NCBI GenBank assembly: GCA_963813995.1
Contig: CAWFAZ010000086.1
Location: 71,973 to 135,972 of the forward strand
Length of the DNA stretch: 64,000 bases
Direction of reading: 5' to 3'
Source of the DNA: an uncultured Verrucomicrobiae bacterium
Lineage (GTDB): Bacteria > Verrucomicrobiota > Verrucomicrobiia > Limisphaerales > Palsa-1400
In this document: piece after piece, positions 9,234 through 41,372 of the stretch
How positions within the stretch are numbered: the first letter of the stretch is position 1
Layout: the number at the start of each line of letters is the position of its first letter
Program-made: the position numbers and the translations under genes
Notes under the pieces: generated by a model
Told to the model about the DNA's origin: nothing
Database searches by the model: none
What the model saw: only the letters and a program-made list of their open reading frames with translations

Positions 9234-9237
9234 ATTC

Positions 9238-11294: not shown

Positions 11295-11311
11295 CGCCCC
11301 TCGCCGATTCG

Positions 11312-12241
11312 TCATTCCTTGGTCATTCGTGCTTCGTCATTAGTCATTCCGCCGATAAAATCGGCGGCGACCGCATTGGCGCGGACTTGGGCGGGGTCCT
11401 TGCAGCCCGGAATAACCGCTGTCACCAACGGATTTTTCAGACACCAGGCCAGGGCATATTGCGACATTTGAACCCCCGGCGGGACTTCCTCCTTTTGGAT
11501 GCGTTCGATTTCGGCGAAGTCCTGCCGCATTCTTGCAGGGTCGAACGTGGCGCGGACATCGTTCGGCGCGAATGTGGTTCCGGGACGATATTTGCCGCTC
11601 AACAACCCGCTGGCCAGCGGCACACGCGCCAAAATGCCAAGGCGGTCGCGTTGCGCGTGGGGAAAGTAAATCTGCTCCGGCCGGCGATCGAGCCGGTTAT
11701 AAACCACCTGAAGAACCTCCGCGCCAAACCGCCGGGCCTCGCGCGCCTGGAATTCGCTCCCCTTGCCCAGGATGGAAATCCCCAAATGCCGGATTTTCCC
11801 CGCCCGCCTCTGTTCCGCGAGCATCGCCCACAACTCATCATTCTGAAAAAGCGCATCCGACCCCGAATGAAACTGATAAAGATCAATGCGCTCCACGCGC
11901 AAAGACCGGAGCGAATCCTCCAATTGCCGCCGCACATCGGCGGCGCTGAAAACGTCATCACGTTCCATGAACCCGCGGAAGTGATGTCCGAACTTTGTCG
12001 CCACAATCCAGCGGGAGCGATCGCGCCGGGCCAGGTATTCCCCAACCAATTTTTCAGAGGTATGATCCCCGTAACACTCCGCAGTATCGATCAAGTTAAT
12101 GCCGCTGGCGGCAGCCTGATCGAAAATGGCATCGGCCTCATTCTGGGAAAAGACGCGACCCCACTCCCCGCCCAGTTGCCAGGTTCCGATCCCGATCACC
12201 GACACCCGCAACCCAGTATCGCCAAGAATTCGATAACGCAT
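11312..12241 (-). CDS. Aldo/keto reductase
   Basis: MRYRILGDTGLRVSVIGIGTWQLGGEWG...INLIDTAECYGDHTSEKLVG is a typical AKR N-terminus with the catalytic-region pattern. Confidence 0.9.
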   Translation of the reverse strand: MRYRILGDTGLRVSVIGIGTWQLGGEWGRVFSQNEADAIFDQAAASGINLIDTAECYGDHTSEKLVGEYLARRDRSRWIVATKFGHHFRGFMERDDVFSAADVRRQLEDSLRSLRVERIDLYQFHSGSDALFQNDELWAMLAEQRRAGKIRHLGISILGKGSEFQAREARRFGAEVLQVVYNRLDRRPEQIYFPHAQRDRLGILARVPLASGLLSGKYRPGTTFAPNDVRATFDPARMRQDFAEIERIQKEEVPPGVQMSQYALAWCLKNPLVTAVIPGCKDPAQVRANAVAADFIGGMTNDEARMTKE

Positions 12242-12273
12242 GAGATAAAATGAAACCAGCTACTCTTTCGGTG

Positions 12274-14841
12274 TTAAAGCGAAGGAACGCGCAGGCTCTG
12301 CATTTGGAACAGATGCAGTGCCGCGATGTTGACATGGTTGTAGCTTCCTTCCCCACCCCCCGGCCCGGACGTATAGCGTTCGTTGTTTTTCAAATAGCTC
12401 ATGTTTCGGGAATATTCGTCTTCACTGATGCAAATGGAGTATTCTTCCCCCGCTTTGAAGCTCACGCTGACCGGCGAGGACATGTCCCACCGTTTCCAAT
12501 CACCGGATTGCGGCATGACCAGATAACCGCAGGCGAGCGCCTCTTTGCATCCGGCCTTGCGGATCTCCAGCTTCTTCACGGCGCAGGTGATGCCCGTATT
12601 GACCGGCCCGGAGCCGTTGGCGAATTCCGCGCGAATAACATAATGGCCGCTGCGATTCACCTTGAAGCTCCTTGTCAGCAGTTGGTCGCCGGGTTTGCCC
12701 CAATTCTCAAAGTGGTGGCCGGCGATCAGCGTTCCTCCGCGATTCTGCATGTCCCTGGCCGGAATCACCTTTAGCTGATCTTCCGTCCCGTAGCAGCGGG
12801 GCGGGCTGAGGTGCGAGGCGTTGCCGCTTTGAGAATCCACCGCCTCAACTGCGTAATAATGCACCGTGTCCCGGTAGTCGGCGGACAAGGGATCAGTCCA
12901 ACGCGTCTGCCGGATGCCCCTGGCGCAAAGTTGTCCATCACGATAGATGTTAAAGAGGACGTTCGCGGCGTCATCGTGGTGGTAATGCAACGCCAGGCGT
13001 CCATCCTGAACGGTGATGCCTGCTTGCTGAGCGTCGTCCCATGTCGGTTGAACCGGCCCGAACAGTGCCCGGTCGTTTGAGACATCCACCATTCGCAGTG
13101 GAGCGGCGTCCTGAGATTCTTTGGGGTCCTGAAGGTAAATGTCCCATTGATTGGCGGGTTGCAGCGAATCCGCGGTTGCGAACTCGTCGCCGATATTCTT
13201 CCCGTTGAGTTCCACGCGCTGAACGGCGCAAACGCCGCGCGCCTGTGAATGGGCCGGGGGGAGATGCACGCGCACCTGATTGCGGGTGTTCTGCCAGGCG
13301 AAATCCCGAAGTTCGATCTGATCGCTGTTGGGGAAGGTTTCATTCCGCATCTCCGCCGTGATGAAAGGCCGGAAACGAATGCCGTCCCAGGAAGTTTCCA
13401 AACCGAAGACGACGTCCTGCATCGTCGCAAGGTAGCCGGCCACCGACCAGAGTTGGCGGCGGGAGTTGATGACGGGGCCATTCAAAGCTTTGCCTTTTAC
13501 TTCCGCCTGGCCGGTGACAAAGTCGAAGTTCTCCATATTGGAAAGGTTGAAGGCAGCCAGGCGCTCCAGGGAGCGAACGCCCAGGTTTACGGCATCGGGA
13601 TTGTTTGCCTGGCGGGCAGCCTTGGTCCAATAAGCGGTCACAAATGGCCAGATGGCCTGGTTGTGATAAACAGGCACTGTCCGCTCCTGCGGCCAGACGA
13701 CCGGCGGCCCGTGCGATCCGACGGGGTAATTTTTCAGTATCGTTTCCGCCCTGGCCTGGTCGGCGACCCCAAACAGGATGGCCAGCGACTCGCCGAGCAA
13801 ATCGTAACGGTGAACGCGGATGTCATACACCCCGTCTGAAAGCAGACAGGTGCTGTAAAGGCCGGCTTCAGGATCGAAGAAATGTTCATTGATGGACGCT
13901 TTCAGATTCCCGGCCCACGCCGCATAACGGGAGGCGTCGGTTTTTCGTCCCAGCAAGCTCGAATACCCGGCGGTGGTCTTCAACAGGAAGTAATCGGCGG
14001 CGTTCACCGAGAGCGCTTTGGACATCGCGATGGGCAGCACGTTGTCCCTGGTCCAACCGGGATACGTTTGCTCGCGCCAGTCAAGAAATGATTGCTCGCC
14101 ACGGTAAAGTCCGTCGGCGGGGTCAAACACCAGCCGCCGGTCCTGTTCGATGGTATCACAAAGGATCGGATAAACCCTTTTGAGGAAGTTTTCCCGCTCC
14201 GCGCCGTCGAGGTATTTCAACGTCTCGCCCGCCCCCAGCGCCCAAACTATACGGTCGCTGGAAACCGGATAACTTCCGCCGGAACCGGTGTCCTGAATGA
14301 TCTGGTTGGTGAACCCGCCCGCAACGGAGGATTTGAGAACCGAGGTCTTGAAGAGGAGCGAGTTGACGGTCCGCCGCGAATCGAACCCGGCCAGGGCCAG
14401 ATGCACGGAATAAGCCAGGTCGCGCGTCCAAACGTAGGTCCAAAACTCCCCCGTCTGCCAGGCTTCGAGTTCAACGGGCTGGCCCTTGCCGTAAGCGCCG
14501 TCCTTGATTTGCGCGACGGAATTCTGCAACGCCTCGTGAACCGCCATGGCGTAGAGTCCGTCGAAGAGCACGTTGCCGGTCCGGAGTCTGGCATGACCCT
14601 TCGCTTCAGAAAACGTGATCCGCTTTTCCGCCGGTTTGTTATCACGCAACTCTGCGGTGCTCGTCAGTTCGTACGTGCGGAGGTCGCCTGATTGACTGAC
14701 CGACATGGTTGTCCGTGTCGGGCCTTCGGCCAAAGTAACGCTGCTTTGCGCCCTGGCGCAGGCCATTCCCAACCACCCGCCGGCAATGAGTGCTCCCGTT
14801 AAAACCGTGTTCATCAATAATTGCATGACAAGATTTGGCAA
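12274..14841 (-). CDS. Secreted six-hairpin (alpha/alpha)6 glycoside hydrolase, GDE_C/GH15-like, with C-terminal CBM6/35-like domain
   Basis: 855-aa ORF with a signal-like N-terminus. Barrel-type blocks are present: FWTYVWTRDLAYSVHLALAGFD, GLYRGEQSFLDWREQTYPGW and YHNQAIWPFVTAYWTKAA. The C-terminus YVIRAEFANGSGPVNTGITCAVKKLEI...GDWKRWDMSSPVSVSFKAGEEYSICI looks like a beta-sandwich CBM. The exact GH family is not resolved. Confidence 0.6.
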   Translation of the reverse strand: MPNLVMQLLMNTVLTGALIAGGWLGMACARAQSSVTLAEGPTRTTMSVSQSGDLRTYELTSTAELRDNKPAEKRITFSEAKGHARLRTGNVLFDGLYAMAVHEALQNSVAQIKDGAYGKGQPVELEAWQTGEFWTYVWTRDLAYSVHLALAGFDSRRTVNSLLFKTSVLKSSVAGGFTNQIIQDTGSGGSYPVSSDRIVWALGAGETLKYLDGAERENFLKRVYPILCDTIEQDRRLVFDPADGLYRGEQSFLDWREQTYPGWTRDNVLPIAMSKALSVNAADYFLLKTTAGYSSLLGRKTDASRYAAWAGNLKASINEHFFDPEAGLYSTCLLSDGVYDIRVHRYDLLGESLAILFGVADQARAETILKNYPVGSHGPPVVWPQERTVPVYHNQAIWPFVTAYWTKAARQANNPDAVNLGVRSLERLAAFNLSNMENFDFVTGQAEVKGKALNGPVINSRRQLWSVAGYLATMQDVVFGLETSWDGIRFRPFITAEMRNETFPNSDQIELRDFAWQNTRNQVRVHLPPAHSQARGVCAVQRVELNGKNIGDEFATADSLQPANQWDIYLQDPKESQDAAPLRMVDVSNDRALFGPVQPTWDDAQQAGITVQDGRLALHYHHDDAANVLFNIYRDGQLCARGIRQTRWTDPLSADYRDTVHYYAVEAVDSQSGNASHLSPPRCYGTEDQLKVIPARDMQNRGGTLIAGHHFENWGKPGDQLLTRSFKVNRSGHYVIRAEFANGSGPVNTGITCAVKKLEIRKAGCKEALACGYLVMPQSGDWKRWDMSSPVSVSFKAGEEYSICISEDEYSRNMSYLKNNERYTSGPGGGEGSYNHVNIAALHLFQMQSLRVPSL

Positions 14842-29363: not shown

Positions 29364-29427
29364 GTGATTGGTTGTTGCGCGCCCCGGTCAGCCACGCGCT
29401 GATCGGGGCGGCAATGAACATTCAGAT

Positions 29428-30306
29428 ATGAAACGTCAAAAGGCATTTACATTGATTGAATTACTGGTGGTCATCGCCATTATCGCCATACTGGCGGCCA
29501 TGTTGCTGCCCGCCCTTGCCCGTGCAAAAACGGCGGCCCTTTCGGTTAAATGCATGAGCAACAAGAAGCAAATGCAGTTGGCTTGGAGCATGTATGCCGG
29601 CGATAACCATGAGGTTCTTGCCGATAATCATGACTACCACGATTTTGGAAATTGGTCACCACCGACTCCGCCGGGAACGCCAGCCTGGTGCGAAGGGTGG
29701 TTGACGTGGGGTGTTGGTTCTCCTCCTTCTGACAACACCAACACAGCCCTCCTCAGCGGAATACCTTTGAATGGAAGAGTTTATGCGTTACTGGGGCCGT
29801 ACGTCGGCAATCAACTGGCCGTATTTCGCTGCCCCGGCGATACTTACGCCAGTGCGGCCCAGCACGCAGCCGGATGGGCGACTCGTGATCGCAGTATTGC
29901 CATGGATGGAAACATTGGGGGTGGAGAGAAATATGCATTTGAAGGTTGGACGCTCACGAATGCCATTACCAAAGCGGGCAATTTTACCTCGCCGGGGGCT
30001 GCCATGAGCTGGGTGTTCATGGATGAGCATCCTGATTGGATTGATGACTCCATTCTTTATGTTAACCCCGCCGAAACAAACGGGGTGGGTGAATTTACTG
30101 AACTGCCGGGGAGCTTTCACAATAATGCCTGTGGAATCAGTTTTGCCGATGGCCATGCCGAAATCCATAAATGGACGGATTCTCGAATCAATCTGCGGGT
30201 CCTATATGAGTATCAACAAGATCTTGGACCCGGTGGAATCAGCTTCCCGGCTGGTAACCCTTGCAAGGATCTGGCATGGATGGCACAGCGCACACCTTAC
30301 CAATAA
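29428..30306 (+). CDS. DUF1559 / H-X9-DG protein with prepilin-type N-terminal cleavage/methylation domain
   Basis: [34 protein letters not shown] is a type IV pilin-like leader and helix. The C-terminal [21 protein letters not shown] fits the H-x9-DG pattern. The ATG at 29428 is preferred to the upstream ORF-track start. Confidence 0.85.
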
Positions 30307-30376: not shown

Positions 30377-31015
30377 TCACCCGCGAAGGTATTTCACCAC
30401 CGCGTCCGTCCGCGAATGCACGTGCAGTTTCTCATACACCGTGCGCACGTAGCTGCGCACCGTGTCGATGCTGATGTTCATCCGGTCCGCGATTTCCTTG
30501 TAAGCGTAGCCTTTGGACAGTTGGTCCAGAAATTCCCTTTCCCCCGGCGCCAGGCGCGACACCGGCGAGTTGTCCCCGGCCGGCTTGGAAAAAAACTGCA
30601 CCACCCGCCGCGCCAGTTGCGGCGTCATGGGCGAACCGCCGCCGTGAACATCGTGGATCGCCTCCAGCAGCCGCGCCAACGCGGTCCGCTTCAGCAGGTA
30701 GCCGCTGGCCCCGGCCTTCAAGGAATTGAACAGCGAGTCGCTGTCCTCATAAACTGTCAACATGAGAATTTGCGCCTTGGGCAGGATGGCTCTCAATTGC
30801 CGGACGCATTCCACGCCGTTCATCCCCGGCAGGTTGATGTCCATCAGCACCACGTCCGGCGGACGGTTGGGGATTTCTTTCAGGGCCGTTTCGGCGTCAG
30901 GATAGTCGCCCGTCAGGCGCAGCGCCGGCGCGCGCCGGATGAGCGTTGCCAGACTGGCGCGGATGCCCTCGTCATCATCCACGATCGCCACTTTGATCTG
31001 GGTCTTTTCTGTCAT
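30377..31015 (-). CDS. NarL/LuxR-family two-component response regulator
   Basis: The REC domain is KVAIVDDDEGIRASL...DVVLMDINLPGMNGVE. The LuxR HTH is EREFLDQLSKGYAYKEIADRMNISIDTVRSYVRTVYEKLHV. An alternative start lies at 31042. Confidence 0.9.
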   Translation of the reverse strand: MTEKTQIKVAIVDDDEGIRASLATLIRRAPALRLTGDYPDAETALKEIPNRPPDVVLMDINLPGMNGVECVRQLRAILPKAQILMLTVYEDSDSLFNSLKAGASGYLLKRTALARLLEAIHDVHGGGSPMTPQLARRVVQFFSKPAGDNSPVSRLAPGEREFLDQLSKGYAYKEIADRMNISIDTVRSYVRTVYEKLHVHSRTDAVVKYLRG

Positions 31016-31095
31016 GACAGTATAACAGTTGTCATGCTCCATTCATGGCATATAACCGCCCCTTCCGGCAATCACTGAACGTGCGGCGGCGAAGT

Positions 31096-34000
31096 TCAAG
31101 CTGCGGCCTTTCCGTTGCTGTGAATCAGCGCAAAATGCAGGCTCAATCTGACGGTGGTTCCCTGGCCGGGACGGCTCTCGATGGTCACGTTCTCGCCTAT
31201 CGCCTGCGCCCGGCGGCGCATATTGCCCAACCCGTTGCCCCGGCTCTGTCCGTTGATGTCAAACCCCCTGCCATCGTCCTGCACCATGATTTCCAACGCG
31301 TTGCCCGCCGCCTTGGCGCGGATGAGGACCTCGCGCGCGGCGGCATGTTTGAGCGCGTTGGCCAGCGCTTCCTTGACGACCAAAAAAATATTATGCCGGA
31401 CTTCCGGCGGCAGCGGAAGCGCCGGCAAATCGTGCGGCAGGTCCAGCCGGCAACGTATCCCGCCGCCTTCGAATAATTCATTGGCAAAGTGGGCGATGTA
31501 TTCCACAAGGCTTTGCAGCGAATCGCTCCCGGGCCGGACCGCCCAGACAATCTCCTCCAAGGCCCGCACGGTTTGATCGGCGGACTGGGAAATCTTGACC
31601 GCGTGGCTTTCGACCTGGCTGGGATTGTCCCGGTCCGCCTTGAGCAGGCCGCTCAAAAGCGAAATGCGGGCCAGGGACGAACCCAAATCATCGTGCAAAT
31701 CGCGCGCGATGCGCTCCCGTTCATGCGCCAGGGCGCGCTCCTGCTCCAATTGTTCCAACCGGCGGTGCAGTTTGCGCTTTTCCATCACCCGCGAGGTTGC
31801 CGCGATGATGACCAGCAATCCCAGCGAGGCTGGCACCCGAAACCACCACGTCTGCCATAAGTGCGGCTGCACGGTTACCGAGACACTTGCGCCCGTCTTG
31901 CTCCAGCCCCCTTCCCCGTTTCCAGCGATGACCTGAAATCGGTATTTGCCGAACGGCACATAAGGAAAGGAGGCCGAGCGGCTCGAGCCGGCTTCCACCC
32001 AATCGGAATCCAGTCCTTCGAGCCGATACCGGAAGCGCACCCGTTCGGGAGCATCGAAATTAAGGCCCGTGTATCGAAACTCAAGCCGGTGCTTGCCGGG
32101 TCCAAGACGCAATGATTCCGCCGCATCCGGCACCCCGTCCACCAGCGTCTCCTCCAGCACCACCGCTGGCGCGGGAATCCCCGTCGTTTGGTGATGTGGA
32201 TCAGCCACCACAATCCCCTCCTGCGTGGGGAACCAGAGCAGCCCTGATTCTGTTCTGAGGCCAATCGGAAAAAATCCGCTGATGCATTCCTCCGACAACA
32301 TGCCCTCTGTGCGGCCATAGGCCTGCGGATACGCCGCCGCTATCTTTTGCGCCGCCAAATCCTCCAATTCATGCTTGCTCACACAAACAATGCCCCGGTC
32401 GCCTCCCAGCCAAAGATTGCCCGCGTCATCTTCGAGTATTTGCGATATCGTATTGTCGGGAAGCCCTTCGCGCGTTGTAAATGTCGCCACCTTCCCCTCT
32501 TTCAACCGGCTCAACCCGCCGCCGCCCGTTCCGATCCAAAGTGTGCCTTCCGCATCCGGGTACAGTGTGCGGACCCAATCGCTCAGCAATCCGTTCCGTT
32601 TCCTCCAATGCCCGTCCGCCCTGCCTTCAACACTGAACAATCCATCGCCGGCGGTTCCCACCCATGTGGAGCCATCCTGCTGCGGCACAATGGCTGTTAT
32701 CGCATGGACGTGCTGGCCGTTCTTTTGTGCCAGCCACTGCCCATTGTCCTGCCACCAAAGCTCCCCTTGTCGTGTCCCCACCCACAGCCTGCCCTGCGCA
32801 TCCTGTCCCAACGCACTCACGTCCAGGTTGGTCAACGCCGCCAACCCGGGTTCGATCTCAACATTGCGCGCGTCCTTGAATTGCAGCAACCCGCGCGCGC
32901 CGCCCATCCAGCAACTGCCGTCCCTGGCCATCAGCAGCGCTCCCGCCCGGCCATCCCCCGGCGACAAGCCTGCGGCGGGCAGCGGCCTGAAATAACGGCC
33001 ATCCCAAAGATAGAGGCCCTCGCTTGATTTGCTCGCCCAAATCATACCCGGCGTTACCTCCGCCAGGCCCTGCACTGCGCCGTTGCCCAGCCCCTCGTTA
33101 TAGCTGATCACGGACAGGTTTTTGGGCCGCAGCCGATTCAAGCCTCCGTGCGTGCCCACCCAAAGTTTTCCTTCCCGATCCACCAGCAGCGCCTCCACCA
33201 AATTGTCCGACAAACCGCTGCTCGCATTCACAGCCACCAGCTTCCCATGCTTGAACTGGAACAAACCCTCGCTCACCGACCCCGCCCAAACCGTGCCGTC
33301 GGCATCCTCCGCCAGCGCGCTGACGTAGTGCCTCGCCAGGTGACGGGGAAACCGGTAGCGCCGCCACTGCTCCCCCTCGCGATACAGCACCGAGTCATCA
33401 CCCGCGCCGACCCAGATGCGCCCTTCATAATCCACCAGCAGGCAATGCGGATCCTCCAGCAAATTATCGAAGACCGGGTCATGCACCTTCAATAGTTCCC
33501 CGCCCCGCAGACTGAACACCCCGGCGCCCTTCGCCCCGATCCACATCGCGCCGGTGCGCTTGCTGAACAGCGACGTGATCGGTTTTCCGGCCAGTTCAGC
33601 CGGGGCGCTGGAAGTATCCAGATGCCCATTCCGCCATGCCGCCAACCCCGCTTCCGTGCCGACCCAAAGCCTCCCTTCGCTGTCCTCCGCCAGCGCATTC
33701 ACTGAATCCGACGGCAGTCCGTCCTGGGTGGTAAACGCCGTAAACCGCCCGTTCTGCCATCGTCCCAACCCCCGGCCCACGCTCCCGATCCACAGCGCCC
33801 CCTGCCCATCCCCCAACAGCGTCTGCACCGGCCCGGCTTGAAACCCTTCCGGCAAACCGAACGACACAAACCTCACCCCGTCAAACCGGCTCACCCCGGC
33901 ATCGCTCCCCACCCAAAGGTAACCATCCCTGGTCTGCGCCAGCGCCCGCACGAAATTCTGCGGCAACCCCTGCTCCCGTTGCCACACCCGGAACGTGAAT

Positions 34001-34773
34001 GGCAACTGCCCGCGCCCGATGGTCAGGCCCGCGTTGCCCGATTTTATTCCGCTCTCGTCCACCACGAAATCGCTGAACGACGTTGCAATCGCCATCTCGC
34101 TGAACGTCCAGCCATCCCCGCCCCCGCCGTGGCGCAGGCGGATTTGGTTGAACGACGCGTTCGCGGCGAACTTCGTCGTCAGGCTTTCCATCTGGTTGGC
34201 CTCCGTCGCGCCCGGCCCAAGATCCGGATCCAGCCACACCGTCACCAAATCCTTGCCCCCCGCCACATATTGCGCTTTAAAAACAATCGTCCGCTCAATC
34301 CCCTTGCGCGGCAGCTCATACAACTGCCCGGCCGCCGGCTTCGACGAATTCAAGTCAATGCCGTAATCCGTGGTTGCATTGTTCGTCCTGCCGGTTTCGA
34401 AAACATTGAAATTGGTTTTGCCGACCTCAAAAACATTAAACGCGCCGTAGGCCCAGGCCTGGAGCGCATTGCCCACCCCCAGCCGTTCCGTGTCCCCTTC
34501 GTACAGCTCGAACGCGGCAAAATAAGGCTCCGTGCCCGCATCCGATATCGGGTTCACATGAAACTTGAAATACAGCCTGTCCGTCGCCGCATCATCCCGT
34601 TTCACCGCCCCTCCCAGAATATCCGAGCCTGGCCCCGTCTCATGCGCCAGCGTCGCGCCCAAATCGCTCCAGATGATATCCGCCCGGCAGGAGGCCGATG
34701 CCAGGAACATCCATCCCGCCGCCACCCACACCCGCGCAGCGGGGCGGAGCGAAAAAACGGCCAGCGTGATCAT
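31096..34773 (-). CDS. Sensor histidine kinase: N-terminal unknown domain + beta-propeller (Reg_prop) repeats + Y_Y_Y + TM + HisKA_3 + HATPase_c
   Basis: The propeller repeats include DGYLWVGSDAGVSRFDG and similar units. The Y_Y_Y block is RLEFRYTGLNFDAPERVRFRYRLEGLDSDWVEAG. The TM segment is WWFRVPASLGLLVIIAATS. The HisKA_3 block is ERERIARDLHDDLGSSLARI, and the ATPase block is GRGFDI...GNGLGNMRRRA. The start is ATG 34773, with TTG 34821 also possible. Confidence 0.85.
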   Translation of the reverse strand: MITLAVFSLRPAARVWVAAGWMFLASASCRADIIWSDLGATLAHETGPGSDILGGAVKRDDAATDRLYFKFHVNPISDAGTEPYFAAFELYEGDTERLGVGNALQAWAYGAFNVFEVGKTNFNVFETGRTNNATTDYGIDLNSSKPAAGQLYELPRKGIERTIVFKAQYVAGGKDLVTVWLDPDLGPGATEANQMESLTTKFAANASFNQIRLRHGGGGDGWTFSEMAIATSFSDFVVDESGIKSGNAGLTIGRGQLPFTFRVWQREQGLPQNFVRALAQTRDGYLWVGSDAGVSRFDGVRFVSFGLPEGFQAGPVQTLLGDGQGALWIGSVGRGLGRWQNGRFTAFTTQDGLPSDSVNALAEDSEGRLWVGTEAGLAAWRNGHLDTSSAPAELAGKPITSLFSKRTGAMWIGAKGAGVFSLRGGELLKVHDPVFDNLLEDPHCLLVDYEGRIWVGAGDDSVLYREGEQWRRYRFPRHLARHYVSALAEDADGTVWAGSVSEGLFQFKHGKLVAVNASSGLSDNLVEALLVDREGKLWVGTHGGLNRLRPKNLSVISYNEGLGNGAVQGLAEVTPGMIWASKSSEGLYLWDGRYFRPLPAAGLSPGDGRAGALLMARDGSCWMGGARGLLQFKDARNVEIEPGLAALTNLDVSALGQDAQGRLWVGTRQGELWWQDNGQWLAQKNGQHVHAITAIVPQQDGSTWVGTAGDGLFSVEGRADGHWRKRNGLLSDWVRTLYPDAEGTLWIGTGGGGLSRLKEGKVATFTTREGLPDNTISQILEDDAGNLWLGGDRGIVCVSKHELEDLAAQKIAAAYPQAYGRTEGMLSEECISGFFPIGLRTESGLLWFPTQEGIVVADPHHQTTGIPAPAVVLEETLVDGVPDAAESLRLGPGKHRLEFRYTGLNFDAPERVRFRYRLEGLDSDWVEAGSSRSASFPYVPFGKYRFQVIAGNGEGGWSKTGASVSVTVQPHLWQTWWFRVPASLGLLVIIAATSRVMEKRKLHRRLEQLEQERALAHERERIARDLHDDLGSSLARISLLSGLLKADRDNPSQVESHAVKISQSADQTVRALEEIVWAVRPGSDSLQSLVEYIAHFANELFEGGGIRCRLDLPHDLPALPLPPEVRHNIFLVVKEALANALKHAAAREVLIRAKAAGNALEIMVQDDGRGFDINGQSRGNGLGNMRRRAQAIGENVTIESRPGQGTTVRLSLHFALIHSNGKAAA

Positions 34774-34865
34774 GCGCCAAATATGCGTCAACCCGCGCCG
34801 CAAGACAAGCGCCGACCTCAATTCTCCGGTGGGAACAAATTGGGGGGTTCTGGAGTGACGATGAG

Positions 34866-37433
34866 CTACGCCACCCGCTCGAACTCCTTAAGTCGCACTT
34901 GCGATTGCAGATAACCAATCAACGCCTCCCGCTCCTGGGGGCTGAGCTGCGACAGTGAGCCGAAGAGGCTTGCGTCACGAGCGCGCAGTTCAGCGAACCT
35001 GCCTTCCTCCAGCAGCATCCGGCTTTGCTCATCCAGCAGGAAAGCCACGAACACCATGCGCAATTCCCGGTTGTGAGTGGCGCTGGTTTCTTGCGTGGTG
35101 ATGAAACGTTCAAACGCTTCATCCGCAAGCTCGCCGCGCGTCGGGATGTTCGGAGCTAAACCGAACACTCGGGCGAGTATTTCCCGCAAACTCGGCAAGC
35201 GATCCGTTTTGTAAACCTCCTGAAGCTTTGGCAGATTCCAGAATTCTTGAGGCTTCTCGAACAGCAGGCGGCGGATGCGTGTCTCGACCGCGGGCCAGTC
35301 CTCCGCGTCGTACGCTTGCCGCAGAAGAGCGTCACTGGCGACAGCCTCGCTGGCCTGGTGTGCAAAACGCTCGCGATACATTTCGCGGTCAATCCGCATT
35401 CCGAAAAGTCCAACCTCATCACGGATGACAGTGGCCATCGGGTCAGGCGATGTGTTGGTGAAATCCTCAATGCGAATACCTCCCCCGCCGCCATCACCTC
35501 CGCTGCCTTCTTCGGGCGGCCCTTTCGGCAACGACAGCTTCCGGTCGTAATCAAATTCCCCCTCGAAGAACTCGAAGTTGGCGAAGAAGTCGAAGAGGGC
35601 GAAGCTGTCCTTCCTGGCAGTCCTTTGACTTGCGCCCTCGCCATGTTGGAACGTGAACAGCCGCGTCCCACGGCCTTTGATCTGGATGAAATCGGTGGGC
35701 GAAAAAATCGGTCGCGCCAGCGCCACATTTAGCACGTCTTCGCAATCGTAGCCGGTGGTCATCATCCCCACCGTTACGCAAACGCGGGTTCGGCTCGTGT
35801 CGTAATCGCGAAACTCTTCCCCCCGCCACTTCGATTTGCCATTAAGGTTGTTGTTTGCAAAATCAATCGTCATCTGCTGCGCTCCGGCTATCTCTGACGT
35901 GACTTGCACCGCAAACGTCGAACCGGCGGCGTATTCTTTCGGCCAGCGGCGCGTCGCTTCCTCGTTGAGCAATGTCACCAGCTTGGTCGCGTGCTTGCGA
36001 CTGACGGCAAACATGATGGCCTTGCCGGTTTCGCCGGTAACTGGATCGCACTTGGCGTTGTCCAGGAAACAGCGGACAAAGCTCAGGTTGGTTTCATCCG
36101 AGAAAAATCTCCGCTCGTAATCGCGCTTGCCGAAAACAAGTTCGGTCTCCTGGCTCTCCTCGTTGGCCGGCACAGTGACTGCGTAACCTTCGTCGGAAAG
36201 CATTTGCGTGGTGATGTCCGTGCGCGCATCGAGCGTGACGGGATTACAGAGGTAGGGCGGCACATGCTGAACGGCGTTGGGCAGGGTGTAACGGAACGTT
36301 GGCTTGCCGTCATCGCTGCCGAAAGTCCGGTACGTGTCGAGGAGCAGCCGCCGCTCGTATTCGCGTGGATCGTTTTGCCGCGCCTTGTCATCCAAACCCT
36401 TGAGGTAATCCCTGGGTGTCGCGGTGAGGCCGAGTTTTGCGCCGATGAAATACTCAAAGATGGCCCGGTTGTTTCCGCTGATGGTGCGATGCGCCTCGTC
36501 GCTGATAATGAGTTGGAAATCCGTCGGGGCAAACTCATGCAGGAAGCGGTTGCGGGCCGCAAGGCTTTGAATCGTCGTCACCATCACTTGCGCCTGCTTC
36601 CACTCCTCCCGCCGCTGTTTGTAGATGACCGTCTGAATGCCGTCGTTGGCGAGGTAGGCGTTGAAATTCTTCCACGCCTGAGTCTCCAGCTCCAATCGGT
36701 CCACGAGAAACAAAATGCGCGTGGCATTTTCGGTGCGGAGGTACAGCTTGGCGATGGCCGCGCTCAAGAGCGTCTTGCCCGTTCCGGTCGCCATTTCGAA
36801 AAGAAATCGGTGGTTTTGCGGTGTCGCCGCCTTTTGCAGCGCGCGAATGCCTTCAAGCTGGTAATCGCGCAGGAGGCGGATTTTCTTGTTCCCCATCACC
36901 GCCGCGCGATCGGCTGGGGAATACGAAAGCCACGCGGCATCCTGCGAAACGGCAATGTAATTCTCATCCACCGGGACGGCGGCGAGCCGGGTGGAATCGG
37001 GCCGCCACTCTGCCGCCTTCCCCAAGTCTGCTAGCGGCAGGAAACGCGATACCTTGACCGGATTGCCCTGCCGCAGATTCCAGTAGTAATGCACCAGCCC
37101 ATTGCTGAGGAAAATGTGGCTGGCCCCGAGGCTCTCCGCGTAACTGCGCGCCTGCTCCTTGCCGGTGAGCGGGTCAATGCTCTCGCGCTTGGCTTCCGTA
37201 ACTGCCACCGGCCGTTGGTCGGTGTTCAGCAGCACGTAATCCACGAAACCCTGCGGCGCGTGCTCGAAATCATTGCCCAAGTCCTGGCTGGGGGAAAACA
37301 CCCGCCGCGTGACACGGTGCTCGCAGATGATGTTCTCGCGCCGCCCCTGCGCATCAGGCAGGAAACGCCAGCCTGCTTCCTCCAGTAGCTTGTTGATGGT
37401 GATGCGCGCTTGGGCTTCGGATGATCGAATCAT
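34866..37433 (-). CDS. hsdR: Type I restriction enzyme R-subunit-like protein (PD-(D/E)xK nuclease + SF2 helicase + EcoEI_R_C-like tail)
   Basis: The N-terminus is SEAQARITINKLLEEAGWRF...GFVDYVLLNTDQRPVAVTEAKRE (D...E-x-K nuclease pattern). Helicase motif I is EMATGTGKT, motif II is IISDEAHR and motif VI is QIKGRGTR. The ATG at 37431-37433 follows the upstream gene's stop (TGA 37435-37437) by 1 nt. Confidence 0.85.
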   Translation of the reverse strand: MIRSSEAQARITINKLLEEAGWRFLPDAQGRRENIICEHRVTRRVFSPSQDLGNDFEHAPQGFVDYVLLNTDQRPVAVTEAKRESIDPLTGKEQARSYAESLGASHIFLSNGLVHYYWNLRQGNPVKVSRFLPLADLGKAAEWRPDSTRLAAVPVDENYIAVSQDAAWLSYSPADRAAVMGNKKIRLLRDYQLEGIRALQKAATPQNHRFLFEMATGTGKTLLSAAIAKLYLRTENATRILFLVDRLELETQAWKNFNAYLANDGIQTVIYKQRREEWKQAQVMVTTIQSLAARNRFLHEFAPTDFQLIISDEAHRTISGNNRAIFEYFIGAKLGLTATPRDYLKGLDDKARQNDPREYERRLLLDTYRTFGSDDGKPTFRYTLPNAVQHVPPYLCNPVTLDARTDITTQMLSDEGYAVTVPANEESQETELVFGKRDYERRFFSDETNLSFVRCFLDNAKCDPVTGETGKAIMFAVSRKHATKLVTLLNEEATRRWPKEYAAGSTFAVQVTSEIAGAQQMTIDFANNNLNGKSKWRGEEFRDYDTSRTRVCVTVGMMTTGYDCEDVLNVALARPIFSPTDFIQIKGRGTRLFTFQHGEGASQRTARKDSFALFDFFANFEFFEGEFDYDRKLSLPKGPPEEGSGGDGGGGGIRIEDFTNTSPDPMATVIRDEVGLFGMRIDREMYRERFAHQASEAVASDALLRQAYDAEDWPAVETRIRRLLFEKPQEFWNLPKLQEVYKTDRLPSLREILARVFGLAPNIPTRGELADEAFERFITTQETSATHNRELRMVFVAFLLDEQSRMLLEEGRFAELRARDASLFGSLSQLSPQEREALIGYLQSQVRLKEFERVA

Positions 37434-37434
37434 A

Positions 37435-38259
37435 TCAAGCCACCCCCAATTCAAGTTGGTGTTGATGCGGCGGCGCGAACACCCCAACGATTATCCACGG
37501 ATTCGGCGCGAAGCCATGAAATTGCTGCGTCGTGCCAAGGAAGAAATGCAAATCGCGTTTGCCGAACTCATCCAGATACTTGGCTTTTACTTTTTCCAGC
37601 GCCACCGACTCCTCGCCATATCGCCGGAAGCAATTCCAATAAAGCTGGCCGCACTCCCAATCCAAAACTTGCATGGTGCTTTTCCGGCCGGCTACATCCT
37701 CAATTTGATACGAGAAGGCGTATGGCAGCTTGGGAATGACTTTGAACGCCTGCCGCCAGGACTCCTCGGCAAAGAGTTCAGTTTGCCGGTTCATATTCCG
37801 CATTTGTGCCAGCTTGTTTTCATCCCACTCGCGGTCGTCATCTTCCCAAATGAAACCACGAATCTTAGCCGGCTTGAAAACCGCCAAAGACAGCCGGTTT
37901 TCCTTCGCGCCGACGAAGAGCGGCTCAAGCTGTTCGTAAACCGTGGCCCGCTTCAACAGCAATTCACGCCGTTCCCGCCAGTTGTCTTCCGTTCCCATGT
38001 GGCCGCTTGGGAGCAGCTTGGTGGGGTCGGCGGGGTGGTGCGTTTCCGGGCGGATGTCCGAACGGCTTCGGATGAAATCAGCTTCGATCCAATCGAACTT
38101 CTTATATTGCTCCTGCTCCTCCAAGCGTCGGAACGGCACGGGATAAATCCGCATCCACGACCCATCGGCGCGCACGCCGGCTGTGCAAACGGTCTCGCCG
38201 TATTTTCGCGACAGCGTCGGGTAGGTCTTGACCGTGATTAGCACGCGCTCCTTGGGCAT
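37435..38259 (-). CDS. Hypothetical protein, no recognisable family (passenger gene 2 in the R-M operon)
   Basis: 274 codons starting at MPKERVLITVKTYPTLSRKYGETVCTAGVRADGSWMRIYPVPF. It lies 11 nt after the DUF488 gene's stop, and its own stop lies 1 nt before the hsdR start. It has a sensible amino-acid composition and the same strand and spacing as the rest of the operon. Confidence 0.6.
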   Translation of the reverse strand: MPKERVLITVKTYPTLSRKYGETVCTAGVRADGSWMRIYPVPFRRLEEQEQYKKFDWIEADFIRSRSDIRPETHHPADPTKLLPSGHMGTEDNWRERRELLLKRATVYEQLEPLFVGAKENRLSLAVFKPAKIRGFIWEDDDREWDENKLAQMRNMNRQTELFAEESWRQAFKVIPKLPYAFSYQIEDVAGRKSTMQVLDWECGQLYWNCFRRYGEESVALEKVKAKYLDEFGKRDLHFFLGTTQQFHGFAPNPWIIVGVFAPPHQHQLELGVA

Positions 38260-38270: not shown

Positions 38271-39164
38271 CTACAAATGCACCACCGCCGAATCCTTTCC
38301 CGCGCCCTGCGCCAGCGCTTCCGCCACACAATGCCGGTGGCATTGCTGCGGCAATAATTCAAAACACGTCAACGCCACCCGATCGCCTTCCCCGATCCAG
38401 CCGCGGATTTTCGCCAGCGCTTCGCTCTGCTTGGGCAGGCTCTTGCGCTCATACTCGACAAACAACGCATCGTAATCCGCCTGTGTCTTCAGGTCGCGGC
38501 GCTCCCCCGAATCAATGCCCAGCTCCGGCAAATGCTCGTAACGAATCCCCACGCCTTCGCACACCTTGCTCAGCGTGCTTTTGGAAAATCCATACTTGCG
38601 GCTCAATGGATTCCGGCGCACGTCACACAACAGCGTCACGGAATTCTTGAGCAGCAGATTCAAATACGCCTCCAGACTCCGGCCTTCATAGCCGATCGTC
38701 ACCAGTCCGGGCTGACCTTTTTCCGGATGCGCCTCAATCACGCGCTGGCGCGACCCGGCATCCGGCAACACTTTTTCCACGATCTCACTGCGCGTCGCGT
38801 AGTAGGGGAACTTCCGGTATTGCTCGGCAATGAGCGCATTCCCCCGGAGCCTGGCATGGTCGCGGCAAAACCGCGCCACCATCAGCGGCATCACCGCCTC
38901 CTTGCGGGCTGTCTGGCGTCCTGCCTCCGTGAGTTGCCACTGGTTTTCGTCCGCCGTCAGGAGGCCGGCCACCGCCAGCCGCCGCTTGTCCGCGTAGGAC
39001 GTGAACGAAAACGCCCCAAACTTGTAGGGCACGAATTCGTAGGTGGGGGATTCCTCGCATTGCTGCGTGTAAAGAAACAGCAGCTTCTGGAAATCAGTGT
39101 TCGCCACCGGCCCGCCAAGGGCGTCCAGCATCGTTAATAGCAGGCGTTGGCGTTCAAATAACAT
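38271..39164 (-). CDS. DUF488-domain protein with an extra N-terminal domain of about 125 aa (passenger gene 1 in the R-M operon)
   Basis: The C-terminal half VTIGYEGRSLEAYLNLLLKNSVTLLCDVRRNPLSRKYGFSKSTL...ALTCFELLPQQCHRHCVAEAL matches my recollection of DUF488. The N-terminal part FQKLLFLYTQ...YEFVPYKFGAFSFTSYADKRRL is an additional domain. Confidence 0.7.
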   Translation of the reverse strand: MLFERQRLLLTMLDALGGPVANTDFQKLLFLYTQQCEESPTYEFVPYKFGAFSFTSYADKRRLAVAGLLTADENQWQLTEAGRQTARKEAVMPLMVARFCRDHARLRGNALIAEQYRKFPYYATRSEIVEKVLPDAGSRQRVIEAHPEKGQPGLVTIGYEGRSLEAYLNLLLKNSVTLLCDVRRNPLSRKYGFSKSTLSKVCEGVGIRYEHLPELGIDSGERRDLKTQADYDALFVEYERKSLPKQSEALAKIRGWIGEGDRVALTCFELLPQQCHRHCVAEALAQGAGKDSAVVHL

Positions 39165-39204: not shown

Positions 39205-39363
39205 CTAATTCATTCCCCGGCCCCCGCACCATTCCCCCCGGTCGAGGACGCATTGGATTTTGGCCTCGAAGCGGGGGATCAGCGACCGCACCGCCCCCAT
39301 CTGTGCCGCCTCCGCGTCCAGTTCGGCCAGAAGAAACCTTAGCTCAGTATCCAACAATTTCAT
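39205..39363 (-). CDS. Possible 52-aa ORF translationally coupled to the methylase gene
   Basis: It falls below the 60-aa ORF-track cutoff. The minus strand reads ATGAAATTG...: the ATG (39361-39363) overlaps the methylase TGA (39360-39362) as ATGA, and GGAGGA lies 9 nt upstream. The product is MKLLDTELRFLLAELDAEAAQMGAVRSLIPRFEAKIQCVLDRGEWCGGRGMN, and the stop is TAG at 39205-39207. Confidence 0.3.
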   Translation of the reverse strand: MKLLDTELRFLLAELDAEAAQMGAVRSLIPRFEAKIQCVLDRGEWCGGRGMN

Positions 39364-41372
39364 TTTTCTTCGTCCTCCGGCCCAAGAATGGTTTCAACAT
39401 GTGTTTTCTTTGCTGCGGTTTTCAACAGTGATTCAGCTGTCTCGAAGACTTTCTCCGCCAAACGTAAGAACTCCGGGTTGGTCGCGCTCCGTTTCAGGCT
39501 CAACGCTATTTCTTCAATTTGCTTTGCGTGCTCCTCGGCTAAGTAAACCTCTATTATTTCCTTTTGTATTTCCGGCTTCGGAACGGGAATTACAAGATTC
39601 AGCAGTTGCGTGCTGCTCATCGTGATGTTGGTTGCACCAGACATCAATGGAACGAGGATCTGGTATCGCAGACGACTTAGTAGTATAAACAAATAACGCG
39701 GAATTACCTCTTTCTCGTTTTTTGAAAAGAGCGCGCACATTGTCGTAGCTATAGCAAACTTCCCTTCTTGGTAATGGAGGCGTTTGATGTCAGCCTTGCC
39801 GTGTCCGGCAGACGAAACCAGCGGAATACAAACCGCATTACCTTCGAAGTCCCAGTGGTCTGATGTTTTTCTCTCTTCTGCAGGGACAACGAGAGCGTAA
39901 TCGCCCGGCGGCGTTGCCATGTTGGGCGAGAGACCATCTTTAACGTCACAGATGTCGCCCAGCCTACGGAGCGGAATGTCTGGTCGGTGTGTGATGCGGT
40001 TTGGGAGGTCATACCAGCGGCCAAGAAGATTCCGTTCCTCATCTTGCTTAATCGTGTCCTTGGAAACCGTGAATGCCATTACTCCCTTCTTCCGACGTTT
40101 CCACGGGCGGTGCTGGCCGACTGCCTGGCTGAAGCCCTTTACAACCTCCAGTGCAGCGGGAAGTTCATTGCCTTCAATTGGCAGGCGGGTGTCGCTTTGC
40201 GTGAAGCCGTCATTTTCAATTTCGACAAACAGAATCTCGCGTGATTGTCGGGAAAGAGATTTGTCCGCCAGCAAGATATGAGTCTTCACGCTGGCGTAGG
40301 GTTTGAAGACTCCGTGCGGTAGCGTGATGTCGGCGAGCAACATGTCCTCATCCACGAGCATTCTGCGAAGTTTTGTCTGTGCGCCTTGCTCATTGGACAT
40401 GATGCCTTCGGGAACGATTACCCCGGCGCGACCGTTGGCGTTGAGATGTTCAAGCATGTAGTCCAAGAAGAGTACCTCGGCCTTGCGGCTTGCGACGCCA
40501 AAGCGGGTGTGCGGGGTCACGCCGCCTTTGGGAGTCATGAACGGCGGGTTGGCAAGGATGAGGTCGGCCTTCTCGTGCCAGCGGGCATCGTTGCTCAGGG
40601 TGTCGTAGATGTGGATGGCGGGGTCGGGAAAGCCGTGGAGGAAGAGGTTCACCTTGCTCAGCTTCACCATGAGGTCGGTGATGTCGTAGCCGGCGAGATT
40701 GCCATAGAGTTTCTGGCGCTGGTCGTGCGTGAGCCGGTCGCCGGAAATGTTCGAGCCGGGCGAGGTGCTTTGCGCCAGGATGTGTTTGTAGGCGGAAACA
40801 AGGAATCCACCCGTGCCGCACGCGGGATCGAGGATTTTGTCGCCCGGCTGCGGGTCAAGGCAGGCGACGATGAAATCAATGATGTGGCGCGGGGTGCGGA
40901 ATTGGCCGTTCTCGCCCTGTGTGCCCATGCACTGGAGGAGATATTCGAAGGCGTTGCCGAGTTCCTCGCTGTGCGAGTAGGCGAAGCCGTTCACCTCCGT
41001 AAGGAACATCGTGAGGATGCGCCCGTCGCGGAATTTCAGGAAGGCATTGCGGAAGATGTCGCGGAAGAGGCCGGGCAGGTGCGCGGCTTTCTTTGGATTT
41101 CCCAGCGCCTCGATTCCTTCGGAAAAGAGCGTGACGCGCTGCTCGGCGGAGACGGTTTGCGGAAGGAGATTGCGCCAGCGATATTTTGCGAGGTCGCCGA
41201 TGAAGAAGGAGCGTTTGCCACCGAGCTTCACGGATTCCTCGTCGAGGTCGTCCATGAACTTGTAGATCAGTGCGAGCGTGATGAGTTCGACCTGGTCGGA
41301 GGGCAGCGGGAGCTTGCCAACGAGTACGTCGCGGCAGGCATCAATGCGGCGTTTGGTTTCAGAGGTAAGCAT
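39360..41372 (-). CDS. hsdM: N6-adenine DNA methyltransferase (HsdM-like) fused to a single HsdS-type target-recognition domain
   Basis: The HsdM_N-like N-terminus is IDACRDVLVGKLPLPSDQVELITLALIYKFMDD. The SAM motif is ILDPACGTGGFLV and the catalytic motif is LILANPPFMTPKGG. The C-terminal region of about 240 aa (LRRLGDICDVKDGLSPN...VIPRYLFILLSRLRYQILVPLMSGATNITMSSTQLLNLVIPVPKPEIQKEII) follows the type I S-subunit TRD pattern. Confidence 0.85.
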   Translation of the reverse strand: MLTSETKRRIDACRDVLVGKLPLPSDQVELITLALIYKFMDDLDEESVKLGGKRSFFIGDLAKYRWRNLLPQTVSAEQRVTLFSEGIEALGNPKKAAHLPGLFRDIFRNAFLKFRDGRILTMFLTEVNGFAYSHSEELGNAFEYLLQCMGTQGENGQFRTPRHIIDFIVACLDPQPGDKILDPACGTGGFLVSAYKHILAQSTSPGSNISGDRLTHDQRQKLYGNLAGYDITDLMVKLSKVNLFLHGFPDPAIHIYDTLSNDARWHEKADLILANPPFMTPKGGVTPHTRFGVASRKAEVLFLDYMLEHLNANGRAGVIVPEGIMSNEQGAQTKLRRMLVDEDMLLADITLPHGVFKPYASVKTHILLADKSLSRQSREILFVEIENDGFTQSDTRLPIEGNELPAALEVVKGFSQAVGQHRPWKRRKKGVMAFTVSKDTIKQDEERNLLGRWYDLPNRITHRPDIPLRRLGDICDVKDGLSPNMATPPGDYALVVPAEERKTSDHWDFEGNAVCIPLVSSAGHGKADIKRLHYQEGKFAIATTMCALFSKNEKEVIPRYLFILLSRLRYQILVPLMSGATNITMSSTQLLNLVIPVPKPEIQKEIIEVYLAEEHAKQIEEIALSLKRSATNPEFLRLAEKVFETAESLLKTAAKKTHVETILGPEDEEK

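Follow-up and report, generated by a model that had tools for sequence, protein, structure and literature searches.

The window, a stretch of 64,000 nt from an uncultured Verrucomicrobiae bacterium, carries a type I R-M operon on the (-) strand, into which two further genes, here termed A and B, are inserted directly upstream of hsdR. The host operon, which lies outside the A-B cassette, comprised a fused type I M-S gene (39360..41372; N6_Mtase and one Methylase_S TRD by Pfam, PADLOC MTase_I at E 2.2e-90) and an hsdR of the EcoAI/EcoEI type (34866..37433; HSDR_N_2, ResIII, Helicase_C and EcoEI_R_C by Pfam and NCBIfam), together with a small ORF for a helical protein of 52 aa (39205..39363, from translation), which overlaps the M-S stop codon (ATGA). 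Gene A (38271..39164) encodes a 297-aa protein with a wHTH and a DUF488 domain and was assigned to PADLOC PDC-M19A (PDLC04505, E 9.3e-105); its stop codon is followed after 11 nt by the ATG of gene B (37435..38259), a member of the PADLOC PDC-M19B family. All of these genes are read from the (-) strand.

The junction of B and hsdR (37433..37437, (-) strand) was read from the sequence and agreed with the initial annotation, in that the B stop codon TGA (37437-37435) is separated by 1 nt (37434) from the hsdR ATG (37433-37431). A G-rich, SD-like GGGGGTGG was found within the 3' end of gene B. The hsdR start was placed at ATG 37433 and not at the upstream TTG 37487, since the HsdR alignments at four other loci (L011, L012, L014, L017) start 1-10 nt past the B stop. 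At least 13 loci, which between them carry two HsdR families, show junctions of 1-11 nt between B and hsdR, and the tight junction implies that B is co-expressed with hsdR. That so tight a junction recurs with both families could be due to a genuine functional link, which would speak against regarding the pair as cargo only. Scanning for promoters and terminators within the operon gave no signal above shuffled sequences, and base composition at the locus gave no island signal.

The ORF of gene B, identified by translation, spans 275 codons including the stop and thus encodes 274 aa; the coordinates and the quoted sequence of the initial annotation were correct, its length of 275 aa was not. 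Homology searches yielded 4,490 homologues at E<=1e-3, which were clustered at 50% identity into 2,263 representative clusters, and members were distributed over many bacterial phyla, plasmids, a temperate phage and archaeal plasmids. Against the PADLOC PDC-M19B model PDLC04508, residues 1-271 aligned with model positions 1-268 of 269 (E 2.8e-106), and PHROG 25907 was matched at E 3.5e-63. With this full-length match and a family of such size and spread, the former description of B as an orphan had to be given up. The absence of an assignable motif was borne out: Pfam and NCBIfam, searched with the whole protein and with its separate domains up to E 10, returned no meaningful match, a recognisable catalytic or toxin domain was not found, and sequence and profile searches of the PDB remained without match. 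A maximum Kyte-Doolittle hydropathy of 0.77 agreed with the predicted lack of TM segments. Strong purifying selection acts on gene B, with pN at 0.10-0.16 against a saturated pS of 0.6-0.85 and dN/dS at about 0.06-0.09 where computable, and B is therefore a real gene; a Ka/Ks of about 1, named at the outset as a sign to the contrary, was not seen. The proposal of a folded soluble protein gained support. The acidic WEDDDREWDENKL and the Trp/Cys-rich stretches highlighted earlier are present; the invariant residues across the diverse family are R37, D68, R70, E72 and W201, with E22, C25, K54, R97, S124, D200 and E202 conserved in >=90% of members.

The AF2 model of B (pLDDT 79, pTM 0.81) showed an N-terminal all-beta domain with strands between residues 4 and 87 and, by the secondary structure of the model, a C-terminal alpha/beta domain. 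The predicted N-terminal barrel (residues ~1-90; 37990..38259, (-) strand), described as OB-fold-like on the basis of the model, weak Foldseek matches and conservation, holds the conserved E22, C25, R37, K54 and D68-x-R70-x-E72, and the C-terminal domain (residues ~94-262; 37474..37980, (-) strand) holds R97, S124 and D200-W201-E202. Foldseek matches of the barrel were weak throughout and led to OB and ssDNA-binding proteins (CTC1 at 5e-3, RPA, Teb1, S12, LEF-3 and SSB), with E 5e-3 to 0.1 and TM 0.2-0.27. No match at E<1e-3 was obtained for the model in the PDB and BFVD, and the alpha/beta domain stayed unmatched. These weak matches suggest that B combines an OB-like N-terminal barrel with a structurally unmatched alpha/beta domain. 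The Pfam family DuOB (PF22557) was considered as a relative of the B family on account of a shared N-terminal beta-barrel motif, C-x-A-G...G-x-W-x-R-x-x-P. Only 3 of 94 diverse B members matched it at E<=0.1, all under the gathering score (best 18.7 bits vs 27 bits); the sub-threshold matches (E ~2e-3) came from phage and archaeal members, and window protein B gave none. Homology to DuOB was therefore rejected and is kept only as a lead.

In three close relatives of B (P0018, P0022, P0029; 80% identical), and in these only, the protein is extended by a C-terminal Mrr_cat nuclease domain of the PD-(D/E)xK type (residues 309-425), which window B lacks. The B module thereby takes the position that the DNA-recognition domain usually has in Mrr-type (type IV) restriction enzymes, which consist of an N-terminal DNA reader and a C-terminal Mrr_cat. 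Such enzymes have no DUF488 partner, whereas the B-Mrr_cat fusions retain theirs: gene A still precedes them, and they do not lie within R-M operons.

Gene A contains a DUF488 domain at residues 164-284 (38313..38675, (-) strand; Pfam PF04343, E 2.7e-25), with a score of 89.8 bits (Pfam gathering cutoff 22.2) and with the conserved TxGY, DVR and C-x-E...CHR motifs; T156-x-G158-Y159, D181-V-R183, C267-x-E269 and C275-H-R-H-C279 are invariant. By Foldseek, the DUF488 fold bears a weak likeness to Cys-phosphatases and to tetrapyrrole-methylase halves, which, together with the conserved Cys/His/Arg residues, suggests an enzymatic role. Papers on DUF488 give no function for it, two Aravind-lab eLife papers do not mention the domain, and no mention of PDC-M19, DUF488-N3 or DuOB was found in literature text. 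The N-terminal domain of A (residues 1-150; 38715..39164, (-) strand) was assigned by Foldseek and tblastn as a PadR-like winged helix. Among its fold matches the best was 7yk3_B, covering DarG residues ~168-342 (Foldseek E 9e-3, probability 1.0, TMt 0.50), with PadR and Rv0047c as further matches, and tblastn with the domain led to a PadR-annotated gene at E 5e-5. The likeness to the DarG CTD was confined to the fold: two hhalign runs against DarG CTD profiles did not rise above the controls (E 0.04 in the deep profile-profile comparison, 0.055-0.077 for the controls).

PDC-M19 was named as a "guilt-by-embedding" phage-defence candidate found within type I R-M, BREX and DISARM systems (Payne, Hughes, Fineran & Jackson 2024, bioRxiv 10.1101/2024.01.29.577857) and originates from cassette CAS_00089 (FAM_02799>>FAM_02993), with 174 RefSeq instances in the same study. 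The window pair is a member and differs in no structural respect: A and B each match the full-length HMMs (E 1e-104 to 1e-106), lie on the same strand with A before B and an 11-nt spacer, follow the same gene order and are embedded among R-M genes. For the analysis of genomic neighbourhoods, gene calls at GC-rich loci were anchored by homology. In each of the genome loci (80/80), the DUF488 gene A lay directly upstream of B and in the same orientation, mostly with 6-16 nt from the A stop to the B start, and the distance matrices of A and B correlated (r 0.505, Mantel p~0.001), which supports the suspected tie of B to its DUF488 neighbour as a functional link. Type I R-M genes were located near 29 of these loci. 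The invariable partner of B is thus DUF488, not HsdR, and of the two neighbours whose constant presence had been proposed as a check, only DUF488 held.

Altogether, three gene arrangements that link B and DUF488 were observed, spread over bacterial phyla, plasmids and a temperate phage. B precedes DUF488 in Calothrix (hhalign 95.6%), and the two genes converge in Streptomyces, Rhizobium pRL8, Pseudomonas, Arthrobacter, Burkholderia pYS1 and Gordonia phage Eviarto (gp43/gp42); many distant members have a DUF488 partner that is devoid of the N-domain and transcribed towards B. The Gordonia phage pair is situated in the lysogeny/immunity module, past the repressor. Three other neighbours were discarded as partner candidates: the "immunity repressor" gp44 of the Gordonia phage and the KfrA-like protein of pYS1 as homologues of A, both by BLASTP and Pfam, and small ORFs 3' of B in Sulfolobales plasmids as DUF488 genes. 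In mobile contexts the A-B pair was accompanied by integrase, relaxase, ArdC, primase and TA modules. Plasmid and ICE neighbours such as primase, ArdC, RadC, KfrA and relaxase would fit MGE establishment or anti-defence equally well as defence.

The relation to R-M genes was then followed through the same loci and through relatives of the host operon. Among the 31 loci with >=6 kb on both sides, 14 had type I R-M genes nearby and 17 did not, and no R-M genes were near 51 of all 80; the distribution of B homologues with respect to R-M genes is thus strongly non-random (29/80; 14/31), as expected in the initial annotation. The R-M-linked loci involve two unrelated HsdR families. On the B tree at least 23 changes of context were counted, with R-M gained and lost repeatedly, and the nearest relatives of B (81-83% identical: L003, L006, L008, L010) have no R-M genes; A-B without R-M was also found on plasmids and in a temperate phage. 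The A-B pair moves independently of R-M genes.

Viewed from the host operon, A-B was carried by only 1 among the 80 closest HsdR relatives. Operons that keep the fused M-S gene, and an HsdR 64-86% identical to that of the window, lack both A and B, a pattern which had been named beforehand as evidence against B as an accessory subunit. In related operons, the slot between M-S and hsdR was empty (L103, 51 nt) or occupied by DarT and DarG (orthologous operons L105 and L107), by RhuM or by an AAA_21 ABC-ATPase pair. The 52-aa small ORF, which is among the called genes of L001 and L002, was conserved at 60-82% in R-M-linked loci irrespective of whether the cargo was A-B, DarTG, RhuM or the ABC-ATPase, and it was absent from A-B loci without R-M; it belongs to the R-M operon and delimits the cargo slot on the upstream side. 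Neither obligate co-occurrence with hsdR nor conservation in orthologous operons, both to be expected of an HsdR subunit, was found, and the proposal of B as accessory subunit or stoichiometric partner of HsdR was left without support. Judged by gene content, the pair appears to be an exchangeable cargo of the R-M operon and not a dedicated HsdR subunit, and the locus is an example of how a gene can be tightly coupled to hsdR in translation without its product having to be a subunit. As to other occupants of the slot, DarTG counts as an established defence against phage (LeRoux et al. 2022, cited in PMC12170906), and the RhuM (PDC-S05) and AAA_21 (HEC-01) candidates protected against phage (10.1101/2024.09.26.614923). 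In the latter study, whose assayed candidates do not include PDC-M19, only about half of the embedded candidates protected E. coli.

Taken together, A-B is probably an autonomous, mobile two-gene conflict cassette, a PDC-M19 candidate carried as cargo between the M-S gene with its small ORF and hsdR, and its role is most likely directed against phage or MGEs. In such a cassette, B would be a nucleic-acid binder, with ssDNA or invader DNA as the probable target of the OB-like barrel, and its alpha/beta domain may act as a sensor or effector-adaptor; in some relatives an Mrr-type nuclease is added on the same chain. In A, the DUF488 domain, with its Cys-His-Arg motif and phosphatase-like alpha/beta fold, may supply or reverse an enzymatic step, and the winged-helix domain may regulate or restrain B. 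The net role would most likely be to complement restriction by a defence against phage or MGEs. A-B is a self-contained mobile unit, and it contends with DarTG, RhuM and ABC-ATPase systems for a single slot of a type I R-M operon. With a B family of >2,000 clusters at 50% identity and, as its partner, a widespread domain of unknown function, the pair offers a well-defined and cheaply testable candidate immune system and a concrete route to the function of DUF488.

Three other readings were weighed against the autonomous cassette. In one, the guard or accessory role raised in the initial annotation, which we regard as improbable, B together with A would be kept inactive by the HsdR/M-S complex or would act jointly with it, firing when a phage anti-restriction protein disables restriction, or would modulate HsdR directly. 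Strong enrichment near type I R-M would suit this, as would the identical order S->A->B->R, in which 1-11 nt separate B from hsdR genes of two unrelated families. The classic backup of restriction is PrrC, a non-R-M gene nested among hsd genes and co-expressed with them. Its embedding in EcoprrI provides a precedent (PMC2610378; Payne et al., 10.1101/2024.01.29.577857). PrrC, however, is almost exclusively embedded in type I R-M (Payne et al., 10.1101/2024.01.29.577857), whereas most A-B copies are not (17/31 long-flank loci are free of R-M), the nearest B relatives among them, and copies of the pair also lie in the immunity region of a phage and on plasmids that carry no hsd genes. Furthermore, 79/80 of the closest HsdR relatives do without A-B, the slot is interchangeable and takes unrelated cargo, and the B-Mrr_cat variants bring their own nuclease outside R-M operons. 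PrrC is also a single ABC-ATPase/anticodon-nuclease protein, whereas A-B consists of two genes, neither of which shows a signal of an ATPase or RNase, and no PrrC or ABC match was found for either in Pfam, NCBIfam or PADLOC. In embedded copies a facultative guard role in the manner of PrrC may nonetheless apply, with low probability. Very unlikely, in our estimate, is that an SSB-like OB protein B and a DUF488 phosphoesterase-like enzyme aid incoming plasmid, ICE or prophage DNA instead of defending the host. The roles envisaged for such a module include ssDNA protection, end processing and restriction alleviation. Homologues on conjugative plasmids, in ICE-like regions and on archaeal conjugative plasmids, the primase/toprim, relaxase, RadC, ArdC, KfrA and integrase genes beside them and the fold matches of B to ssDNA-binding proteins are consistent with this; repeated embedding in R-M operons, in a slot of validated defence systems, and the Mrr-type restriction nuclease fused to some B relatives speak against it. 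The temperate-phage copy behind the repressor is moreover typical of prophage-encoded defence, and mobilome-associated families were removed before PDCs were named (Payne et al., 10.1101/2024.01.29.577857).

The third reading puts a specific mechanism to the autonomous cassette, in which B would be an ssDNA-directed toxin of new fold and A a bifunctional antidote, whose N-domain sequesters B and whose DUF488 domain reverses its action; we hold this to be rather unlikely. It draws on DarTG, likewise a two-gene cassette, which takes exactly the same slot in L105 and L107: the best structural match of A is the C-terminal domain of DarG, which neutralises DarT (Deep et al. 2023, as cited in PMC12170906), the antidote-like protein joins an enzyme and a binding domain, in parallel to DarG with its macrodomain and CTD, its gene comes first and is tightly coupled, the partner with its OB-like barrel looks ssDNA-directed, and TA modules are frequent near A-B. 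The Foldseek E-value of that match is just 9e-3, however, and the sequence profiles are not significantly related, hhalign scoring no better than controls. Domain and gene orders differ between the two systems. No ART signal was seen in B, DarT (PF14487) was found neither by Pfam nor among the best 50 PDB Foldseek matches listed, and Pfam gave DUF488 instead of a macrodomain in A. Distant DUF488 partners, often without the N-domain and convergent, are also atypical for TA pairs. That A-B represents a new abortive-infection toxin-antidote system parallel to DarTG and built from unrelated parts, with B as an ssDNA-directed effector of undescribed fold, which A sequesters by its winged-helix domain and whose action A reverses by DUF488, is unlikely; if true, it would provide the first biochemical function for the large DUF488 family.

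Gene B was located on the minus strand at 37435–38259, with the coordinates and sequence of the initial annotation, its length being corrected from 275 to 274 residues plus stop. Its stop codon TGA (37437–37435, minus) is separated by one base, as initially annotated, from the ATG of hsdR at 37433 (minus; EcoAI/EcoEI-type; Pfam ResIII, HSDR_N_2, Helicase_C and EcoEI_R_C), a start supported by the HsdR alignments of related loci, which begin 1–10 nt past the B stop. Gene A (38271–39164, minus; 297 aa), the 3′ end of which lies 11 bases upstream of B, encodes DUF488 in its C-terminal half (Pfam, E 2.7e-25). In B, a TM segment was not found and no Pfam or NCBIfam match was obtained, in line with the annotated lack of a TM segment and of an assignable motif. 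Non-synonymous divergence was 0.10–0.16 against saturated synonymous divergence, and dN/dS was 0.06–0.09 where computable, not about 1; B is therefore a real, constrained gene. A promoter and terminator scan between the operon genes gave no signal above chance. The flanks encode a protein with a prepilin-type N-terminal methylation motif (29368–30306, plus) and a Y_Y_Y-like sensor histidine kinase of very large size (31096–34821, minus), accompanied by a LuxR-type response regulator (30377–31042); flanking genes and nearest homologues are consistent with a Verrucomicrobiota chromosome.

The description of B as an orphan did not hold. A word-indexed search returned 4,490 homologues, and an exhaustive HMMER search of sequences clustered at 50% identity gave 2,263 clusters, of which 1,302 reached E ≤ 1e-10. 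In PADLOC-DB, B matched PDC-M19B over its full length (E 2.8e-106) and A matched PDC-M19A (E 9.3e-105); the PHROGs entries for both are families of unknown function. PDC-M19 corresponds to cassette CAS_00089 (FAM_02799>>FAM_02993; 174 RefSeq instances; Table S8 in Payne et al., 10.1101/2024.01.29.577857), a literature search found no paper whose text mentions it, and it is absent among the candidates assayed in a later study (10.1101/2024.09.26.614923). The locus thus belongs to a candidate system that had been catalogued before, and, since PDC-M19 is a "guilt-by-embedding" candidate, the arrangement first annotated is the very pattern that defined it. Added here are an unvarying linkage to DUF488 in three gene orders, the occurrence of B in a phage and on archaeal plasmids, its Mrr fusions, an exchangeable slot common to DarTG, RhuM and ABC-ATPase systems, and the lack of a structural match for B in PDB and BFVD. 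The DUF488 domain of A also matched PDC-M45B and PDC-M45C, two components of candidate system PDC-M45 (E 5e-14 and 1e-10), so DUF488 recurs in embedded candidate systems.

A–B is probably an autonomous conflict cassette of DUF488 plus B that a type I R-M operon carries as cargo, with anti-phage or anti-MGE defence as its most likely role; that it is cargo and not a subunit is much firmer than that it is defence. The host operon has a fused M-S gene (39360–41372, minus; 670 aa; methyltransferase plus a single Methylase_S target-recognition domain) and no separate HsdS, which with an EcoAI-type HsdR is an atypical type I architecture. A helical 52-aa ORF (MKLLDTELRFLLAELDAEAAQMG...; 39205–39363, minus), overlapping the M-S stop codon (ATGA), is conserved at 60–82% in related R-M operons irrespective of cargo and at about 45% in distant operons with the order hsdR→M-S. 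It may represent a conserved helix that has become detached from the specificity subunit. The converse survey, of HsdR relatives for A–B, is decisive: among the 80 closest metagenomic relatives of the window's HsdR (44–86% identity) only one locus (L109) contained A–B, and relatives at 64–86% identity still have the M-S fusion and the 52-aa ORF in place upstream. Cargo is exchanged at a hot spot just before hsdR: the slot is empty in L103 (51 nt) and occupied by DarT+DarG in L105 and L107, by RhuM in L102 and L104, and by an AAA_21 ABC-ATPase with a partner (243-aa ORF) in L101. DarTG is recognised as a phage defence (LeRoux et al. 2022, as cited in PMC12170906), and protection of E. coli was obtained with RhuM (PDC-S05) and AAA_21 (HEC-01) candidates (10.1101/2024.09.26.614923). 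A–B is thus interchangeable defence-slot cargo; the proposed accessory subunit of HsdR is not borne out, the ORF being missing where the flanking genes are kept, and the 1-nt junction indicates co-expression, which does not establish the proposed stoichiometric tie.

The annotated neighbourhood of B and DUF488 proved general. An A homologue lay directly upstream of B on the same strand in 80/80 loci from GTDB genomes (Verrucomicrobiota, Acidobacteriota, Myxococcota, Nitrospirota, Proteobacteria, Planctomycetota, Chloroflexota, Elusimicrobiota and spirochaetes), with mostly 6–16 nt from A stop to B start, and the A and B distance matrices correlated (r 0.505, Mantel p~0.001). Distant B homologues (27–35% identity) retain the partner in different layouts: downstream of B on a Calothrix plasmid, as a DUF488 gene of 140 aa (hhalign 95.6%), or as a standalone DUF488 gene tail-to-tail with B, 3′ ends abutting or overlapping, on Streptomyces, Rhizobium (pRL8), Pseudomonas, Arthrobacter and Burkholderia plasmids. 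B (gp43) and DUF488 (gp42) of the temperate Gordonia phage Eviarto (L092, 4024–6271) are convergent beside the integrase, and gp43 overlaps the stop of the preceding annotated immunity repressor gp44 (HTH_31), a position typical of prophage-encoded defence. The sole exceptions were the Sulfolobales plasmid copies, in which no DUF488 was recognisable. That B and DUF488 stay linked through three gene orders and across phyla argues strongly that they form a functional unit. In the representative library, P0134 (305 aa) combines a complete B domain with a DUF488 C-terminus, and P0245 (372 aa) an impB/mucB domain with a fragment of B; each may be a true fusion or a run-on gene call.

The AF2 model of B (pLDDT 79, pTM 0.81) has an all-beta N-terminal domain (residues ~1–90) and an alpha/beta domain (~94–262) with a disordered loop (157–172). 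Against PDB and BFVD no structural match with E < 1e-3 was obtained, the weak best matches being OB-fold ssDNA binders (CTC1, RPA, Teb1, S12, LEF-3, SSB, DnaE-OB); sub-threshold Pfam DuOB matches occurred in phage and archaeal members (3/94 in all). Across 94 diverse members R37, D68, R70, E72 and W201 are invariant, and E22, C25, K54, R97, S124, D200 and E202 are ≥90% conserved. Three close relatives carry a C-terminal Mrr_cat nuclease (residues 309–425) with gene A still upstream, which places the B module where type IV enzymes have DNA-reader domains. B may be pictured as binding nucleic acid via an OB-like barrel, as sensor or effector-adaptor, with DUF488 as the putative enzymatic partner and the winged helix of A possibly regulating or restraining B.

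In a survey of 80 B loci, whose flanks were searched with a HsdR, HsdM and HsdS query panel, type I genes were present in 29, and in 14 of the 31 flanked by ≥6 kb on each side. The layout was in almost every case M/S→(A→B)→R with a B–hsdR gap of 1–11 nt, and embedded copies occur with HsdR proteins of two unrelated architectures (EcoAI/EcoEI type and HSDR_N+SWI2_SNF2+T1RH type). In the B tree, embedded copies are interspersed with free ones, with at least 23 context changes, R-M genes were not found near the closest B relatives (81–83% identical), and other copies adjoin TA modules, integrases, a relaxase, ArdC, primase or ordinary metabolic genes. B homologues are hence non-randomly but not always beside HsdR, the association with R-M being far from random and not obligatory. 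A facultative PrrC-like guard of restriction, favoured by the recurrent layout and disfavoured by the free copies, appears quite unlikely, and a role in MGE establishment or anti-defence, favoured by mobile-element neighbours and disfavoured by embedded copies, slightly less likely still. In L027, the HsdR downstream of A–B (8823–12380) has a DUF559 (Vsr-like endonuclease) insert at residues 311–416, between HSDR_N and the SWI2/SNF2 motor.

Within the defence-cassette reading, a DarTG-like toxin–antidote mechanism is a more specific version, which we consider rather unlikely. In the model of A (pLDDT 87.7), a winged-helix N-domain is followed by the alpha/beta DUF488 domain, whose Cys/His/Arg motifs are invariant. 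The best fold match of the N-domain was the DarT-neutralising C-terminal domain of DarG (7yk3_B; E 9e-3, probability 1.0), followed by PadR-type regulators, and tblastn matched a PadR-annotated gene; profile–profile comparison with 115 DarG C-terminal domains was no better than controls, so the likeness is taken as resemblance only. For the DUF488 half, weak fold likeness was seen to Cys-phosphatases and to halves of tetrapyrrole methylases; the model of the DUF488-N3a subclade, which Pfam sets apart as "active", weakly matched A. The PADLOC Specificity_I model PDLC03184 (positions 437–547 of 554) weakly matched A residues 29–128 (38781–39080; E 9.5e-4), and some HsdS may carry a C-terminal extension related to the A N-domain. 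P0407, a relative of the DarG C-terminal domain, has a DarG-CTD-like domain with PF08780 in place of the macrodomain, which suggests that the toxin-binding domain of DarG is a movable module.
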